A stretch of 64,000 nucleotides of DNA from Ostreococcus lucimarinus (Eukaryota). The notes beneath the pieces are model-generated. The model ran no database searches. It saw only the letters and a program-made list of their open reading frames with translations, and had not been told where the DNA came from. Below are positions 724-7,369 of this stretch, one piece after another. The translations under genes and the position numbers were made by a program. Numbering within the stretch: the stretch's first letter is position 1; each line of letters opens with the position of its first letter. The stretch is from the NCBI GenBank assembly GCA_000092065.1, contig CP000594.1. One strand, given 5' to 3'.

Positions 724-2790
724 CTATTCGTCGACGAGCGGAAGCGCGTCTCTCGAACGGATGGCTGGAAGCATAGCCGGAATCAAGTTCAGGTAATCTT
801 CCAACAGTCCTGTCGTGGTGATGAACTGCCACGTGAAGAAGGCCATGACGAGTGATACGAAAAGCGTGGCGACGAAAGCGCGCTCGCGGAAACCCGAACG
901 CCGGATCATAGCGATCGTCGTTGCCATGACGGGATGAATCGTCATTCTGAAGTAGAACATCGGATAGAAAACGACGAGCGCGACGGAGTACACGGCCAAG
1001 TGTCTCAAGTACTGACGACGCTGTGACCCAGACATTTGCTGCCACGTAAGACCTCGCCACGAGCCCGCTAAAGCTCGTCGCGGCGGTCTTGGAACGAAAG
1101 GTTCATGCTTGCACTTGACGCAGTGACACTTACCACCCACGATGCAACGAGGCAAGATGTGGGGCGAAAACTTTTCATGCAGCTTTTCGATGCCATCGTC
1201 GTCCGCTTGGTAAATCAAAATGCGTCCCTTTGTGCTACTACTCACGACCTCGAGTAATATTTGCAACGCACGTCTCATGAGCCACCACACATTGATGCAA
1301 TGCACCTCGCACGCCAGCTCCGGGTAGTTGGCGTCGAGCGTCACGAGAGTCGTGGCGACGAGGGAAATCGGAAGCGAAGTCAAATCGATACCCGAGCAAT
1401 CGACGAGCGCCACCAAACGACCTCGCATGACACCATTTGACTTCTTCAACCGCATCCACTCCTGCTCGGCGTGCGTCATCACCGCGGCAACGACTTCGTC
1501 CAAGCCTTCCATGCCCACTGCGTCCATGGCGGCTCGAAGTCTCAGCACGAGTTGATAACCGCCGCTCCAGCTTTGCTTCGGACCGTGAATGTATACCACG
1601 TTCTCAAACTGCTTCAGCTTGGCGTCGGTCAAGAACTCATACCTTCTGCGCCATTGCAACGATCGTTCCACGGCTTGCGCCGCGGCGGACGTGTGCTTCC
1701 ACTGTAACAAGAAAGCCGCGAGTTGGGTGTCGGTGAACTTGGCTCTCGCGGTCGGCGAGAGTTTATTTTTCAAAGCGTGAATCTCGTATTCGCGGGGAAT
1801 TAACAGTGCGTTCCCGTATCCAGTATCTGTCGCCACCACACCAGTGTACACGGCGGCTGGCAGTCGTTGTAATCTATTCATTCCGCCCTTGACCCAACCG
1901 ACGGGGCGCAGCAGCGCGTGCCTTTGCCTATGGCTTTCGGCGTACTCTCTCGATTGATTGATGCTCTCGTCGTCGCTCTCTTCATCGCTACCTATGTCTT
2001 CGTCACTGGCGTACTCTCCGTTCGTCCCCGTTCCCGATCCACGTCGACGCCTTCGTCTGTTCCTAGCCCCCGTGAATCGCGCGATGGTGCTCAGCTGTCC
2101 CTCCGCGTGCCGCATCGCGTACAGCACGTCCCTCGGCAACGTCTCCTCCAAAACCTCCCACGCCTCGTTCACCGCCGCCCTATACGAACTCACCTCATTC
2201 TTCACCTTATTCTTCGCCAACAACTTCCCCAACCGCTTCGCGTGTCGCTGCAGCTTTATCCGCACCGCCGGAATCTTGCACACGCGCGCCGCCATTTTCG
2301 CAAACTTCCGCACGAAACATTTATACGGCGCCGACGCCGCGACGAGCAGCGCCACGCGTCCCGTGATCGTCGGCAGCGGCTTACTCGACGCCAGCCCCTT
2401 CGTCATCGTCGCCAACGCCTTGACGACGAGCGTTTCGATCCTTCGTCTTCGCGTCCCGACCGCGTTCGCCTTTAAAAATCCCAACGTTCGTCGTCCGCGG
2501 TGGTTGACGCGATACATCTCTCCCGCGCACACGCACGCCGCGACCAGCGGGCCGCGTCGTCGTCGGGCTTTGCGCAGCCAGACGACTCGCGCGGCGTAGC
2601 TCGCGAACTGCGCCGTGGGCGTCGTCGCGCGGTACAATTCGCGCGCGACCGCCGCCGTGGACGCCGTCGCGAGCGCGACGGCACCGCGACCGAGCGGGCG
2701 CGTCGTCGCGCGCGCGACGACGCGAACGGCGACCTCAGCGGTAGCACCATCGTCCGCGCGCGTCGACGACGCGCCGGACGACGGCGTCAT
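724..2790 (-). CDS. Sec14-like / CRAL-TRIO lipid-transfer protein with C-terminal transmembrane segments. The start is uncertain; the Arg/Ala-rich N-terminal ~130 aa of the ORF may be non-coding.
   Basis: CRAL-TRIO signature ...RLVALVDCSGIDLTSL...LDANYPELACEVHCINVWWLMRRALQILLEVV...ILIY resembles the Sec14 'NYPE' core. Hydrophobic C-terminus (VALVVFYPMFYF..., FVATLFVSLVMAFFTW). Plausible alternative starts are internal ATGs (e.g. MYRVNH..., MTKGL...). Confidence 0.6.
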   Translation of the reverse strand: MTPSSGASSTRADDGATAEVAVRVVARATTRPLGRGAVALATASTAAVARELYRATTPTAQFASYAARVVWLRKARRRRGPLVAACVCAGEMYRVNHRGRRTLGFLKANAVGTRRRRIETLVVKALATMTKGLASSKPLPTITGRVALLVAASAPYKCFVRKFAKMAARVCKIPAVRIKLQRHAKRLGKLLAKNKVKNEVSSYRAAVNEAWEVLEETLPRDVLYAMRHAEGQLSTIARFTGARNRRRRRRGSGTGTNGEYASDEDIGSDEESDDESINQSREYAESHRQRHALLRPVGWVKGGMNRLQRLPAAVYTGVVATDTGYGNALLIPREYEIHALKNKLSPTARAKFTDTQLAAFLLQWKHTSAAAQAVERSLQWRRRYEFLTDAKLKQFENVVYIHGPKQSWSGGYQLVLRLRAAMDAVGMEGLDEVVAAVMTHAEQEWMRLKKSNGVMRGRLVALVDCSGIDLTSLPISLVATTLVTLDANYPELACEVHCINVWWLMRRALQILLEVVSSSTKGRILIYQADDDGIEKLHEKFSPHILPRCIVGGKCHCVKCKHEPFVPRPPRRALAGSWRGLTWQQMSGSQRRQYLRHLAVYSVALVVFYPMFYFRMTIHPVMATTIAMIRRSGFRERAFVATLFVSLVMAFFTWQFITTTGLLEDYLNLIPAMLPAIRSRDALPLVDE

Positions 2791-2937: not shown

Positions 2938-3400
2938 CTACGAATCGCGATCGCCGCTCGAATCGCGATCGCCCGCCTCGAGCGCGCCCGTCAACATCGC
3001 GCGCCGAAGCGTCAAGTTATCCTCGCGCGTCCGGTCGATCGCCTCAGCCTTCATCCAATCGTAATCGAATCCCTCGGCATCGCACGCCAGCACTTTTCTC
3101 GTCTCGATGATTCGCACGGCGACGAGTCGGTAATCCAGCTCTTCGTGCGCCATGAGTTCCGCCAACCACGCGCTCGCGTCGGCGCGCAGCGGCTTGGCGT
3201 GCAGGTAATCGATCCAGTTTCGGCGCCATCGGCGAGCGGTGTCGCGTCCCTGACATCTGGTCCAGGACGACGCGGACGGCGGACATGGTGAGGAGGTCGG
3301 CGAGCGCCTTGGCGGCCTTTCGCGGCGGCGTGAGACCGTCGAAGTCGACGGTGGCGAAGAAGTCCGCGCCGAGGGCGTCGTCGTCGTCGGCGGCGGCGCG
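2938..3400 (-). pseudogene. Disrupted ORF of unknown function. A protein-like translation switches reading frame by +1 near 3215-3235, indicating a frameshift or sequencing error.
   Basis: Upstream frame reads ...FFATVDFDGLTPPRKAAKALADLLTMSAVRVVLDQ. Downstream frame reads ...NWIDYLHAKPLRADASAWLAELMAHEELDYRLVAVRIIETRKVLACDAEGFDYDWMKAEAIDR...* (stop at 2938). Further upstream the second frame becomes Arg/Pro junk, so neither frame is complete on its own. No GT...ACTGAC...AG intron signature lies between them. Confidence 0.25.
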
Positions 3401-3598
3401 CGCGCGAGGCGAGGCGCGCGCGCGCGCGCGAGCGCGCGCGACGCGACCGGACGTGGACGCAGCGGCGGCGCTCGCGGCGGCGCTCGCGCGCATGACGGCG
3501 CGGCGCGCGCGGGTGTGAGGAGGACGCGCGGTCGACGCGCGCGAGCGGGACGCGAGGGGCGTCGGTTGACGTCGGTTCAGCGCGAAAGGTGCGTCGAT

Positions 3599-5893
3599 TC
3601 AACAGACGAGCGGGCTGGCCGGAGCGGCGGGACGGAGCAAAAGGAGCGTCGCGCACAGAGCGACGAGACCGAGCTCGGTGGACGTCAACAGGGACGGGAT
3701 GTGGGCGGCGCCGGCGTCGACGACGGCGGAGACGACGTTCGCGAGCGAGGCGCCGGACGCGAGGAGAGCGCGGCTGTCGGCGCCGACGATGGCGTAGAAG
3801 ACGACCCAGGGCGCCATACCGAATGCGGTTCCGGCGACGATGGCGCGGATGGGGACTTGAGTGAGACCCAGGAGGTAGTTGGTGACCGTGAACGGGGCGT
3901 GCGGGAGGAGACGCATCAACGAAACTTTGGAGGCTTGCACGAGGGCGTCGCCGTCGCCGCTCACGGCGCGGTTCACCTTTTTCAACTGCGCCGCGATCGA
4001 TCGACGCGCGGGCGCACCGATGCCCGTTTGCTGCGCCAAGTCATCGCTGATTTGCCTATACCCTCGAGCGCGGCTCGCGCTCGCGGAGATGGCGGCGGCG
4101 CACACGGCGGCGCATAAACCGAGCGCCGCGCCGTACGCGGGACCAAAAAATAAGCCAGCCATGATGAACAAAGGCTGCGTAGGAACGAATGGAATTATCG
4201 CCGCGAGCGTGGTGATCGCGGTGAGGCACAATGGCGCGAGCACGGGACCAGCTTTACTGATCGCGGACTCGGCGACGTTGAGCCAGCTCGTCGCTCCGAA
4301 CGCGGCCTTGACTTTGGTCGCCGTGGCGATCGGACCGGCTTGTCTCGCGTAAACCAGCGCGCTCACGGCGGCGGCGAAGATGGCGACTTGCAAAATGTGT
4401 TGACCACTGATCAAAAAGTCAAACACAGCCACCGCGCGTCGGCGAATACCGATGGCTTTGATCGCCTTGCGCAAGTTTCGCAACTTGAAAAATCGCTCCA
4501 ACCCTTTCGAGTACTGGTTCTCTCGGAGATTTCTATTGGACGACATCCATCCCCACTTTTCGACGTCTGCGCGACTTGCCGCACCCATGCGTTGGCGTTC
4601 GCTGTCGTTCTCGAGCAACATCTTGACGTGCTCGGCGGCTTTGTCGTAGTCGTACTCGGGGTAGAGCAAGCCGACGTCGCCCGGATTGGTGAGGATATCG
4701 AGTAAGCCACCGGCGGCGACGGCAACGACGGGTACGCCCGAAGCCATGGACTCCATGACGACAAAACCGAGCGTCTCACTCGGGCTCGGCATGACGAACA
4801 CGTCCAAAGACGCGTACGCTGCGGACAAATCGTCTCCCGTGATCATCCCCGTGAAAACTGTATTCGTTCCGGCAAAGTGCTCCTCGAGCCTTTTACGTTC
4901 GGGTCCGTCTCCGATGATGGCCAAATTCACGTTCGACGGTAATTTTGCGAGAATATCTTTGAGATCTCCCAAGCGCTTTTCCGCGCCGAGGCGTCCGACG
5001 CACCCGATGATCGGACCGTCGCGACCGCCGCTCAGACGCTTGCGCATCTCCTCGCTCTTAAAGCTCGGATTGAACGCCACCGTGTCCACGCCCTTGTCCC
5101 AGACTTGCAAATTTTTACACCCTTCTCCTCTCAACTCGTTCTCCAGAATGCTCGAAGTCACCAACGTCGTCGACGCGTAGCCGTTCCAAAACCGAATCAA
5201 GTCCCACATCGGCTTGACCAACCCCGCCCACGTGTACCTCGGAATGTAGTGCGGAATGTGCGTGTGATACGACTCCACGAGCGGTATATCCATCGCCTTA
5301 CAGTACGTCATCGCCCCAAAAATCATCCCTCCCGGCACCGCGCAGTGCACCAAGTCCGGTTTATTCTCCTTAAACTCCCGCCACACCCGTCCGTCGAGCC
5401 CGAACGAGCACAGCAGCGTGTCCGTCCCGTAAAACGGCAGCACGAACCCTCTCAACCCGATCACCTTCGCCCCGTGATACTCCTTCGGCGGATCGCGATC
5501 GGGCGTGATCACCACCACGTCGTCTCCCATCTCTCGCAGGTTCTCGATCAATCGCAGGAATCGATTCTTCATCCCGCTCACGTGCGAAAACGGGCTCGGC
5601 TCCACGAAGATGGCCACGCGTCGTTTCGGTCGCGCGTCCGTCGTCGCCGTCGCCGTCGCGGTCGTTCGCGTCGTCGCGCGTCGCCTCGCGACGACCACCG
5701 CGGCGTTCCGCGTCGCCGTCGAGCGCGCGTCCGCGCGTCCCGCGTCGCCGTCGCGTCGTTTCGGTCGGAATATACCACCGCCCGTCGTCGTCGTCGTCGT
5801 CGCGCGCGTCGTCGTCGTCGTCGTCGCGCGCCGCGGTCGCGCCGACGCTCGAGGCGCGCGCGTCATCGCGCGCGTCGCGAACCTCGCGTCCAT
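3599..5893 (-). CDS. SQD2: UDP-sulfoquinovose:DAG sulfoquinovosyltransferase (SQD2-type GT4 glycosyltransferase) fused in frame to a C-terminal DedA/TVP38-like membrane domain. Predicted organellar presequence.
   Basis: The GT4 domain (VAIFVEPSPFSHVSGMKNRFLRLIENLREMGDDVVVITPD...SYHTHIPHYIPRYTWAGLVKPMWDLIRFW...VGRLGAEKRLGDL...IGDGPERKRLEEHFAGTNTVFTGMITGDDLSAAYASLDVFVMPSPSETLGFVVMESMASGVPVV) matches plant SQD2 closely, from memory. It is followed without a stop by ~280 aa containing the DedA/TVP38 motif (LTAITTLAAIIPFVPTQPLFIMAGLFFG). The 924-aa ORF-track start (6373) lies in CGCG-rich sequence. I place the start at the internal ATG 5893 (MDARFATRAMTRAPRASARP..., transit-peptide-like). Confidence 0.75.
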   Translation of the reverse strand: MDARFATRAMTRAPRASARPRRATTTTTTRATTTTTTGGGIFRPKRRDGDAGRADARSTATRNAAVVVARRRATTRTTATATATTDARPKRRVAIFVEPSPFSHVSGMKNRFLRLIENLREMGDDVVVITPDRDPPKEYHGAKVIGLRGFVLPFYGTDTLLCSFGLDGRVWREFKENKPDLVHCAVPGGMIFGAMTYCKAMDIPLVESYHTHIPHYIPRYTWAGLVKPMWDLIRFWNGYASTTLVTSSILENELRGEGCKNLQVWDKGVDTVAFNPSFKSEEMRKRLSGGRDGPIIGCVGRLGAEKRLGDLKDILAKLPSNVNLAIIGDGPERKRLEEHFAGTNTVFTGMITGDDLSAAYASLDVFVMPSPSETLGFVVMESMASGVPVVAVAAGGLLDILTNPGDVGLLYPEYDYDKAAEHVKMLLENDSERQRMGAASRADVEKWGWMSSNRNLRENQYSKGLERFFKLRNLRKAIKAIGIRRRAVAVFDFLISGQHILQVAIFAAAVSALVYARQAGPIATATKVKAAFGATSWLNVAESAISKAGPVLAPLCLTAITTLAAIIPFVPTQPLFIMAGLFFGPAYGAALGLCAAVCAAAISASASRARGYRQISDDLAQQTGIGAPARRSIAAQLKKVNRAVSGDGDALVQASKVSLMRLLPHAPFTVTNYLLGLTQVPIRAIVAGTAFGMAPWVVFYAIVGADSRALLASGASLANVVSAVVDAGAAHIPSLLTSTELGLVALCATLLLLRPAAPASPLVC
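5783..5826 (-). repeat. (ACG)n/(CGT)n trinucleotide repeat inside the SQD2 presequence (poly-Thr).
   Basis: cgtcgtcgtcgtcgtcgtcg...cgtcgtcgtcgtcgtcgtcg, visible directly. Confidence 0.7.
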
Positions 5894-6622
5894 CGTCGCG
5901 GGCGTCGGCGCGAGCCCCCGCGCGTCCCGCACTGCCGCGCGCGATGGACGCCCCCGACGTCGGCGCTCGCGATCGACCGCGCGGCGGTCGACCGCATCGC
6001 GCGCGCCGCGACGCTGTCGACGCTCGCGGGCGCGCTCGCGGGCGCGGCGCTGGCGCTGCGACGACGCCGACCGCAGGCGGTGGCGCCGACGCACGCCGTC
6101 GCGGGCGCGGCGAACGTCGGCGCGTGCGGCGCGGCGCACGCGACGACGCTCGAGGCGCTGGACAGACGGCCGGACGCGCGAGGCGCGACGACGCACGCCG
6201 TCGCGGGCGCGTGCGTCGGGACGGGCGCGGCGTGGGTGAGGTGGGGACGACGCGCGGCGACGGCGGGCGCGGCGTGCGGCGCGGCGGCGGCGGGCGGCGC
6301 GAGGGCGTGCGCGACGGCGCTCGAGGGCGCGGGAGAGCGCGGGTACGAGTTCCCGAGGTGGTTTCCGGTGCAAATCGTGCGAGAGGAGGGGCGCGAGGAC
6401 GAGCTGCTGGCGCTTATGGGGCGGGCGCAGCGAGGCGAGCTGTCGGCGGAGGACGAGGCGAGGACGCGGGACGCGTACGCGCGGTGGAAGATGCGTCGAG
6501 CGGGGAGAGGGTAGAGGCGCGCGCGGCGAAGCGGTGAAGTGGAAAAGTTAGCGTAGAATACAATCGCGATCGGCGAACGTCGGTCGAGACGCGACGCGAC
6601 GCGACGCGCGCGCGCGCGAGGC

Positions 6623-7369
6623 TCAAATCATCGAAGGCGGCGTCGCGCCGAGAGACGCTAAACGTTTGAGCATGTCTCGCCCGAAACTCCCCGGCGAGTC
6701 GTCGCGCGCCAGAGGCACCGAAATTTCAAACGGGAAGCTCACGACGTCGCTCGTCGTCACCGGCGGCACGTGCGCCTTCATCTCGTTCACCAATCCCAGC
6801 ACGTGTCGCTGCGTCCCGACGACTTGGTCTCGCAGCGCCTCCCGCGCGCGCGCGCGCTCCGTCTCGTCCAACTCCTCACCCCTAAAAATCTCCAATCCGA
6901 TCCTCCACTGTTCCCAGTACCCATTCGCCGCGCGCGCTTCCTCCCGTCGCGTTCGTCCGCCGCTCAGCGCCTCTCGCAGCGCGCCGCCGCGTCTCGGCTT
7001 GTCCCGCTCGCGCTCGTAAAAGCTCACCGCCACGTCCGCCTCCCCGCCTCCCGTCTTCAGCGCCCATCGCACGAGGGCGTTTATCTTCTCCTCTATCTTC
7101 CCGTCCACCGCGCCGTCGCCGCACGCGACGTAGTGCACGTCCACGCGCTCGCATCGCGCGTCCCGAGGCGCGCAGCATCCGAGCGCGCGCGCGAAGACGA
7201 TCGTGTGCAGCAGCGCCGAGAGCACGTCGCGCACCTGCGACAGCTCGCATCGCAGCGGCGGCAGCGCGAACACCTCCCGCGCCCGCATGCGCGCGCGCGT
7301 CGACGCGCGCCGCGATGCGCGGTCGCGGCGCGGTCGCATCGCGATTCCGTCGCCACCGCGGCGTAACAC
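6623..7369 (-). CDS. ATG101: Autophagy-related protein 101 (ATG101, HORMA-like) homolog. The start may instead be an internal ATG (7339 or 7288).
   Basis: Similarity recalled to human ATG101 along the whole length (VLSALLHTIVFARALG ~ MLAVLHTVLLHRSTG; VAVSFYERERDKP ~ MSLEFYQKKKSRWP; YWEQWRIGLEIF ~ PWEVWTVKVHVV; C-terminal HVPPVTTSDVVSFPFEISV ~ YLPKMPTQSEVDNVF...YKISF). About 220 aa. Confidence 0.5.
   Translation of the reverse strand: MLRRGGDGIAMRPRRDRASRRASTRARMRAREVFALPPLRCELSQVRDVLSALLHTIVFARALGCCAPRDARCERVDVHYVACGDGAVDGKIEEKINALVRWALKTGGGEADVAVSFYERERDKPRRGGALREALSGGRTRREEARAANGYWEQWRIGLEIFRGEELDETERARAREALRDQVVGTQRHVLGLVNEMKAHVPPVTTSDVVSFPFEISVPLARDDSPGSFGRDMLKRLASLGATPPSMI

Follow-up and report, generated by a model that had tools for sequence, protein, structure and literature searches.

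Is a plastid sulfolipid synthase joined in one polypeptide to a membrane domain that may handle lipids? The question is raised by an open reading frame (ORF) on the minus strand of a 64,000-nucleotide stretch of Ostreococcus lucimarinus DNA (contig CP000594.1, assembly GCA_000092065.1), which is called the window here and to which all nucleotide positions refer. The ORF (window 3599..5893) runs uninterrupted from an ATG at 5893 to a stop codon at 3599-3601 and encodes 764 amino acids (aa). An earlier note, made from the letters of the sequence, had described it as the sulfoquinovosyl-diacylglycerol synthase SQD2 fused in frame to a DedA/TVP38 membrane domain. The analysis presented here indicated that SQD2-DedA is almost certainly a single fused protein, as judged from coding constraint and from continuity of the frame across species.

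One reading frame encodes both domains

An open frame alone is weak proof of a fusion at this locus, because GC-rich DNA yields long ORFs cheaply; coding and continuity were therefore tested separately. The GC content of the region is 0.57-0.80, and long meaningless ORFs are plentiful on both strands. No stop codon or intron was found between the two domains, as the earlier note had read the frame, and the junction that it had placed at ~4350-4450 corresponds to the linker and the first transmembrane (TM) helix (window 4253-4552). The GC content of third codon positions remains high across the junction and linker (0.6-0.9). Near the junction, Met occurs only as M450, where the glycosyltransferase (GT) part ends, and as M578, inside the first predicted re-entrant loop of the membrane domain. 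With no Met between them, the membrane (VTT) part has no start codon of its own, and separate initiation is not possible.

Ratios of nonsynonymous to synonymous substitution rates (dN/dS) were calculated for each segment from a codon alignment with the Ostreococcus tauri orthologue, a fused protein of 756 aa that is 81% identical (XP_022841138.1 / CEG01736.1 / A0A096PAH6). The GT domain gave a value of 0.10, the linker 0.11, the extra TM helix (TM0) with its following loop 0.26 and the VTT core 0.17. The C-terminal tail gave 0.57, and the N-terminal 88 aa, in which aa identity drops to 28%, gave 1.03. GT, linker, TM0 and VTT are all under purifying selection, and the values of 0.10-0.17 in the GT, linker and VTT core indicate that coding in this frame exceeds chance.

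These data bear directly on the possibility that the fusion is an artefact of the gene model, in which two adjacent genes or a missed intron would lie within one GC-rich open frame. Long spurious ORFs are common here, such as a 469-aa antisense ORF at 5105..6514, and four metagenome proteins (P0005, P0010, P0029 and P0061) lack a complete VTT domain, both of which would fit such an artefact. Against it, the continuity of the frame is kept across lineages at ~50% identity, and in the intron-bearing lineage that we call clade C (P0069, P0073, P0089, P0091, P0310 and P0287) the GT-VTT junction lies inside one exon. This single-exon junction, the dN/dS values (that of the linker among them) and the absence of a Met to start the VTT part led us to reject separate genes or an intron between the domains, and we regard an artefact as extremely improbable. 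VTT-truncated alleles were likewise rejected for P0005 and P0010, whose long-read-style contigs (L006 and L007) bear scattered 1-nt indels typical of long-read assembly error; this explanation was established for these two of the four entries. L006 and L007 are near-identical metagenome contigs that give false frameshifted proteins, and such entries should be read as truncated alleles only with caution. Another contig, L001, is 99.5% identical over window 3466-6249; it could be of either genomic or transcript origin, and is hence non-decisive.

Upstream of the ATG at 5893, the frame stays open as far as a TTG at 6373. This extension is of the same kind as the long Arg/Ala-rich ORFs found antisense to or upstream of the gene, which include the plus-strand ORF of 469 aa mentioned above and another at 5944-6537 (+). 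Their composition and their overlap with the conserved gene suggest that the ORFs overlapping 3500-6500 are products of GC-rich DNA.

The glycosyltransferase domain groups with green-lineage SQD2

The GT part matched the Pfam profiles PF13439 (aa 106-271, 82.8 bits) and PF00534 (aa 281-441, 107.7 bits). Its best named matches were SQD2 or sulfolipid synthases of the green lineage at 42-55% identity, the names being source annotations and Arabidopsis SQD2 lying outside the set compared. In a neighbour-joining (NJ) tree, built like the second one in this study from BLOSUM62 distances with 100 bootstraps, the domain was nested among green SQD2 sequences. All NCBIfam models of bacterial GT4 enzymes scored far under their cutoffs with the GT domain. 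The EX7E motif of retaining GT4 enzymes, located in the C-terminal half of the GT, was conserved in every fused homologue checked.

An AlphaFold2 (AF2) model of the full-length protein was made from a 68-sequence alignment (mean predicted local distance difference test score, pLDDT, 82.3; predicted template modelling score, pTM, 0.69). In this model, aa 92-447 form a confident GT-B fold. By Foldseek, the modelled fold matched MshA, BshA and PimB' (E ~5e-15, target-normalised TM-scores ~0.76-0.84), which are GT4 enzymes directed at lipids or small molecules. By its best matches and its position in the tree, the domain is identified as an SQD2 orthologue, that is, a predicted UDP-sulfoquinovose:diacylglycerol sulfoquinovosyltransferase; the SQD2-like GT4 domain described earlier thus stands on the Pfam matches, the identity values and the tree. 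The corresponding lipid, sulfoquinovosyl diacylglycerol (SQDG), is produced by O. tauri (PMC7407893).

The protein shares with canonical plant and algal SQD2 the orthologous GT domain, the EX7E motif, the GT-B fold and an N-terminal targeting-like extension; the composition of aa 1-88 suggests that this extension is probably a plastid transit peptide. Unlike canonical SQD2, which is ~450-530 aa long and has no membrane domain, the Ostreococcus protein carries ~300 additional C-terminal aa made of TM0 and the VTT/DedA part.

The C-terminal part carries a VTT/DedA core with two predicted re-entrant loops

The VTT_dom profile PF09335 scored 47.7 bits over aa 570-705 (window 3779-4186), clearing its gathering score of 33.9 (E 2.7e-12), and the match spans profile positions 1-122 of 123. 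The DedA/TVP38 signature quoted in the earlier note, IIPFVPTQPLFIMAGLFFG, was located at aa 566-584, inside window 4130-4198. A search of NCBIfam with the C-terminal part gave no match.

A separate AF2 model of the C-terminal 297 aa reached a pLDDT of 85.0 and a pTM of 0.81. Secondary structure assignment by DSSP on the predicted structure placed helix breaks at VPTQP (567-572) and PHAPF (663-667), each with short flanking helices. Residues 585-623 and 682-711 form long helices, and a further helix (627-644) lies between these two. In the models, the domain is thus built around two helix-turn-helix re-entrant loops with conserved Pro residues, each leading into a TM helix and the halves separated by an extramembrane helix, and matches the DedA architecture. 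Residues P568, P571, P574, G580, F583, G584, G588, R661, P664, P667 and Y673 (numbering converted from the 297-aa fragment by adding 467) are invariant in the fused protein and in its stand-alone relatives. Invariance of the loop residues in both fused and free forms fits a domain that has retained an activity of its own, and argues against a role as an anchor only.

The domains are fused in one algal lineage and separate in many others

Although it contains both domains, the O. tauri protein is annotated merely as 'Glycosyl transferase, family 1', and JGI pipelines label such ORFs 'sulfoquinovosyltransferase'. Both domains were also found in ~25 further clusters at 90% identity, with proteins of 700-915 aa that are 48-55% identical to the window protein; these distant metagenomic relatives we take to be Mamiellales (Bathycoccus-like and Micromonas-like). 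Clade C, found on a 20-kb metagenome contig (L002) of 65% GC, has a divergent SQD2 part (41-43% identity) and probably belongs to the green lineage; a search with a FolD gene next to it brought up no named relative above ~50% identity. For a third group, clade B, the only sequence known is P0231, an exon-like ORF of the C-terminal part. The comparison of orthologues that the earlier note had proposed therefore places the fusion in Ostreococcus and presumed Mamiellales, and shows it to be absent in Chlamydomonas, Tetraselmis, Coccomyxa, Ulva, the prasinophyte Pseudoscourfieldia and streptophytes.

The C-terminal 297 aa were searched exhaustively with HMMER against 1.84 billion representatives, which gave 567 matches at E<=1e-3, 80 of them at E<=1e-10. 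The GT part was present in 6 of the best 150 matches. The nearest non-fused VTT relatives are free proteins of ~230-420 aa from core chlorophytes and Prasinoderma, 26-39% identical overall and ~30-37% identical for the nearest ones in this search. Their hosts are Botryococcus, Myrmecia, Trebouxia, Coccomyxa, Elliptochloris, Parachlorella, Chlorella, Tetradesmus, Haematococcus and Prasinoderma, as well as Sanguina, a Chlamydomonas sp., Neomeris and three Tetraselmis species. These free green-algal proteins share with the fused domain the loops PLxPTQPL...GLLFG and RLTPxxPFSxSNYLLGLT. In Tetraselmis, SQD2 (495 aa) and the VTT protein (388 aa) come from two different transcripts, both marked as complete, and a VTT domain is missing from the named SQD2 of Chlamydomonas, Coccomyxa, Ulva, Chlorokybus, Selaginella and angiosperms. 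No streptophyte was found among the VTT profile matches at E<=1e-5, in a search limited by its word index. Domains that are separate in many species and fused in one lineage form a Rosetta-stone pattern.

In the VTT tree, the fused domains grouped together at only 62% bootstrap support, as sister to the free green-algal clade. The GT tree recovered the fused clade of Mamiellales at 100%, sister (98%) to the unfused SQD2 of Pseudoscourfieldia, and did not place clade C. The fusion may thus have arisen once or several times. In the Pseudoscourfieldia marina protein (P0057, 581 aa), the closest unfused SQD2, the C-terminus is a tail of ~80 aa in which a basic stretch is accompanied by two hydrophobic helices, with no VTT domain. 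This tail could be a remnant, an independent anchor or the product of a truncated gene model.

Two other SQD2 homologues, P0051 (Scenedesmus sp. PABB004, 1056 aa) and P0085 (720 aa), have thioredoxin (PF00085) in their precomputed Pfam lists; they would represent a different SQD2 fusion, in Scenedesmus-type algae.

A proposed working model and its alternatives

We propose that the single nuclear gene encodes a bifunctional chloroplast membrane protein that combines SQDG synthesis with tethered lipid translocation, a reading that we regard as evenly poised between right and wrong. The topology on which it is built is predicted from charge and from the site of substrate synthesis. In the AF2 model, DSSP assigned aa 449-496 to a single long helix that extends the last GT-B helix and contains the linker. 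An amphipathic in-plane helix was ruled out for the linker, because its hydrophobic moment is low (<=0.29); it is basic instead. Counts of Lys and Arg (K+R) are 8 in segment 608-650, 3 in loop 519-547 and 1 in loop 705-737, and the loop within segment 498-547 is charge-poor (3 K+R, 1 D+E). According to the positive-inside rule, the basic linker and the basic segment 608-650 would put the GT domain and this extramembrane segment on the same face of the membrane. UDP-sulfoquinovose is made in the stroma, and for this reason the face that carries the GT domain is predicted to be the stromal one.

In a GT-B fold, the last helix packs back on the lipid-binding N-domain, and TM0 would therefore emerge beside the face that accepts diacylglycerol. 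At the inner envelope or nascent thylakoid, the GT domain would make SQDG in the leaflet that faces the stroma; by analogy with characterised DedA proteins, the DedA domain tethered to it may then move lipid across the bilayer where synthesis takes place. Its cargo would most plausibly be the anionic product SQDG, and less plausibly bulk lipid whose movement relieves an imbalance between leaflets. In core chlorophytes, the two activities are predicted to act as separate partner proteins. A narrower version, in which the fused VTT domain is a dedicated plastid translocase for sulfolipid, an anionic glycolipid, and the free core-chlorophyte orthologues are the missing partner of SQD2, is offered tentatively and is more probably wrong than right. 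If true, a protein that carries a thylakoid glycolipid from one side of a plastid membrane to the other would have been identified for the first time.

Several observations weigh against the proposal of translocation. The literal DedA motifs [F/Y]xxx[R/K] and Gxxx[V/I/L/M]xxxx[F/Y] (Keller and Schneider; Okawa et al.) are unmatched in Ostreococcus: the window protein, that of O. tauri and P0008 have ASASR/ATSR-type sequences and GLTQVPIRAI in their place. The fused clades A and C have Ala, Ser or Gly at window aa 566, two positions ahead of the first Pro of re-entrant loop 1, where all 10 stand-alone relatives and clade B have an invariant Glu (AELIP, GEMIP). The free green-algal VTT proteins keep both motifs and the Glu that are lost in Ostreococcus; clade B also retains all three, and both motifs are present in the Micromonas-like P0012. 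The simple tail of P0057 raises the possibility that anchoring alone might be the selected function. The SQDG molecules resolved in photosystem II structures are mostly on the stromal side, and a need to flip SQDG is not self-evident. A search for a solved DedA structure to compare with the model found none. Membership in the DedA family is not excluded by the loss of the motifs, because TMEM41A/B and TMEM64 also lack them (Okawa et al., 10.1101/2020.12.18.423352). If the domain is indeed a sulfolipid translocase, loss of the Glu before loop 1 could represent a tuning to an anionic headgroup or to energy-independent scrambling.

An alternative is a VTT domain that serves only as an anchor or targeting device, holding SQD2 in a subdomain of the plastid membrane such as envelope-thylakoid contact sites, with no translocation of the product. 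A sister SQD2 with a basic stretch and two hydrophobic helices in place of a VTT domain, together with the loss of motifs and Glu in Ostreococcus, would fit this somewhat unlikely reading, as would the influence of an Arabidopsis Tvp38 protein on envelope-thylakoid contacts (PMC13381928). However, some 11 invariant loop residues across fused and free forms are not expected of a mere anchor, nor is a dN/dS of 0.17 maintained over 163 residues, and TM0 by itself would be sufficient for anchoring. We also consider it possible, if unlikely, that the DedA domain is an active transporter of some other cargo: it might supply or remove diacylglycerol (DAG) or phosphatidylglycerol (PG), equilibrate the bilayer in general, or be coupled to protons or ions, as has been suggested for E. 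coli YqjA/YghB. The sequence itself does not point to any one cargo, and Arabidopsis SQD2 also makes glucuronosyl-DAG. DedA substrates are diverse, including undecaprenyl phosphate (C55-P), phosphatidylethanolamine (PE) and bulk phospholipids (PMC10193950; 10.1101/2022.02.03.479048). On the other hand, the fusion partner has been taken in bacteria as a sign of the substrate pathway (PMC10193950), and the loss of the acidic residue in clades A and C would fit, if only weakly, an anionic headgroup. Between these alternatives, the bifunctional model remains the one that we put forward.

The proposal lends itself to experiment. O. tauri can be modified by homologous recombination, and domain-deletion and point-mutant tests are therefore feasible in this species, which makes the fusion a specific lead for plastid lipid trafficking. 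The free VTT orthologue of Tetraselmis, Coccomyxa, Haematococcus and other core chlorophytes likewise becomes a testable partner of SQD2.

Features of the gene and its neighbourhood

The order ATG101 - small ORF - SQD2-VTT - RbcX is common to the window, to O. tauri (L003) and to Mamiellales-like loci of 43% GC (L004 and L005). The fused protein on a 43% GC contig that keeps this order is presumably Bathycoccus-like. A CRAL_TRIO gene after RbcX was found only in Ostreococcus-type loci. Features are listed in Table 1.

Table 1. Segments of the SQD2-DedA protein and neighbouring genes in the window
Feature	Residues (aa)	Window positions	Strand	Evidence
N-terminal extension, Ala/Arg/Thr-rich	1-88	5630..5893	-	AF2 pLDDT <50 for aa 1-82, disordered
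GT4 domain (GT-B fold), SQD2 orthologue by sequence	89-447	4553..5629	-	PF13439, PF00534; pLDDT mostly >90
EX7E motif ETLGFVVME	373-381	4751..4777	-	regular-expression search
Basic linker, within long helix 449-496	448-497	4403..4552	-	DSSP; 12 K+R vs 3 D+E
Extra TM helix TM0 (498-518) and loop before VTT core	498-547	4253..4402	-	hydropathy, DSSP
VTT/DedA core	548-710	3764..4252	-	PF09335; pLDDT mostly 85-98 in both models
Predicted re-entrant loop 1 (helix, Pro-rich turn, helix) IIPFVPTQPLFIMAGLFFGPAYG	566-588	4130..4198	-	DSSP break 567-572, invariant Pro, translation check
Predicted re-entrant loop 2 LMRLLPHAPFTVTNYLLG, invariant Arg661	659-676	3866..3919	-	DSSP break 663-667, invariant R, P, P and Y, translation check
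Poorly conserved loop and last TM helix (738-756)	711-764 + stop	3599..3763	-	hydropathy, DSSP
ATG101		6623-7369	-	PF07855, E 3.7e-37
RbcX homologue, next gene downstream		2995-3493	-	PF02341 in O. tauri and Bathycoccus-like locus
CRAL/TRIO-domain protein with C-terminal hydrophobic segments		724-2790	-	

The window copy of RbcX requires a change of frame at ~3215-3219, where the tblastn alignment of O. tauri RbcX breaks between frames -1 and -2. At exactly 3215, one G is missing from a related but noisy contig (L007), which points to an insertion of 1 nt in the window RbcX sequence, be it a sequencing error or a real frameshift. One metaclust entry (P0232, 318 aa) is a chimeric ORF, with RbcX joined to the C-terminal half of the VTT domain from O. 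tauri, and is probably an old read-through gene model.

Comparison with known systems

Thylakoid biogenesis has long lacked an account of how galactolipids and sulfolipid cross the membrane and leave the leaflet of their synthesis, and DedA/Tvp38 proteins have been placed at the plant envelope-thylakoid interface only lately (PMC13381928). An Arabidopsis Tvp38/DedA protein is found in puncta within chloroplasts, and plants without it have altered contacts between thylakoids and inner envelope; SQD2 is enriched in an intermediate-density 'lightThy' fraction at the same interface (PMC13381928). For Tvp38/DedA proteins of chloroplasts and cyanobacteria, a scramblase or contact-site role has been proposed (PMC3836016, PMC9950537, PMC13381928), and a review has suggested that DedA scramblases relieve the asymmetry of one-sided lipid synthesis in thylakoid systems (PMC9950537). 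Arabidopsis TVPFP and Synechocystis Slr0232, Slr0305 and Sll0509 belong to the same Pfam family as the Ostreococcus domain and likewise belong to a photosynthetic-membrane setting, but they are stand-alone proteins. The conserved fusion adds a genomic link between a specific plastid lipid synthase and a specific candidate translocase.

The fused gene model is already public at NCBI and UniProt for O. tauri and visible among PF09335 architectures; no paper describing an SQD2-DedA fusion was found in the searchable library of literature that we consulted. The fusion had been called unusual in the earlier note. This holds for a plastid glycolipid synthase, whereas the design itself, DedA joined to a lipid enzyme, is known from bacteria (PMC10193950; 10.1101/2022.02.03.479048). 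SQD2-DedA is such a fusion in a eukaryote, with a plastid glycolipid synthase as the lipid enzyme, and its principle will not surprise DedA specialists.

Members of the DedA family scramble or flip phospholipids, PE and undecaprenyl phosphate (PMC10193950; 10.1101/2022.02.03.479048; PMC11980842). In bacteria, DedA is fused to lysyl-phosphatidylglycerol synthase (where it replaces the MprF flippase), CDP-OH phosphatidyltransferase, phospholipase D and PAP2 (PMC10193950; 10.1101/2022.02.03.479048), and these fusions served as evidence for lipid transport (PMC10193950 Fig. 5; 10.1101/2022.02.03.479048 Fig. 3). The Ostreococcus protein likewise unites DedA (PF09335) and a lipid-metabolic enzyme in one polypeptide. 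It differs in its partner, a GT4 glycolipid synthase, in its eukaryotic host, in its probably plastid-targeted product and in a VTT domain from a small green-algal clade; the fusion sets quoted from the two bacterial studies (PMC10193950; 10.1101/2022.02.03.479048) contain no glycosyltransferase partner and no eukaryote. The argument drawn from bacterial DedA fusions is hereby extended to eukaryotes and to glycolipids.

The closest parallel in logic is MprF, the bacterial lysyl-PG synthase-flippase, in which a headgroup enzyme on the soluble face is joined to a polytopic lipid-translocating domain (PMC11980842, PMC10193950). No homology was found to either the flippase or the synthase domain of MprF. 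The likeness lies in the arrangement: in SQD2-DedA, too, an enzyme for lipid headgroups shares a chain with a polytopic candidate translocase, and this chain is conserved across species.

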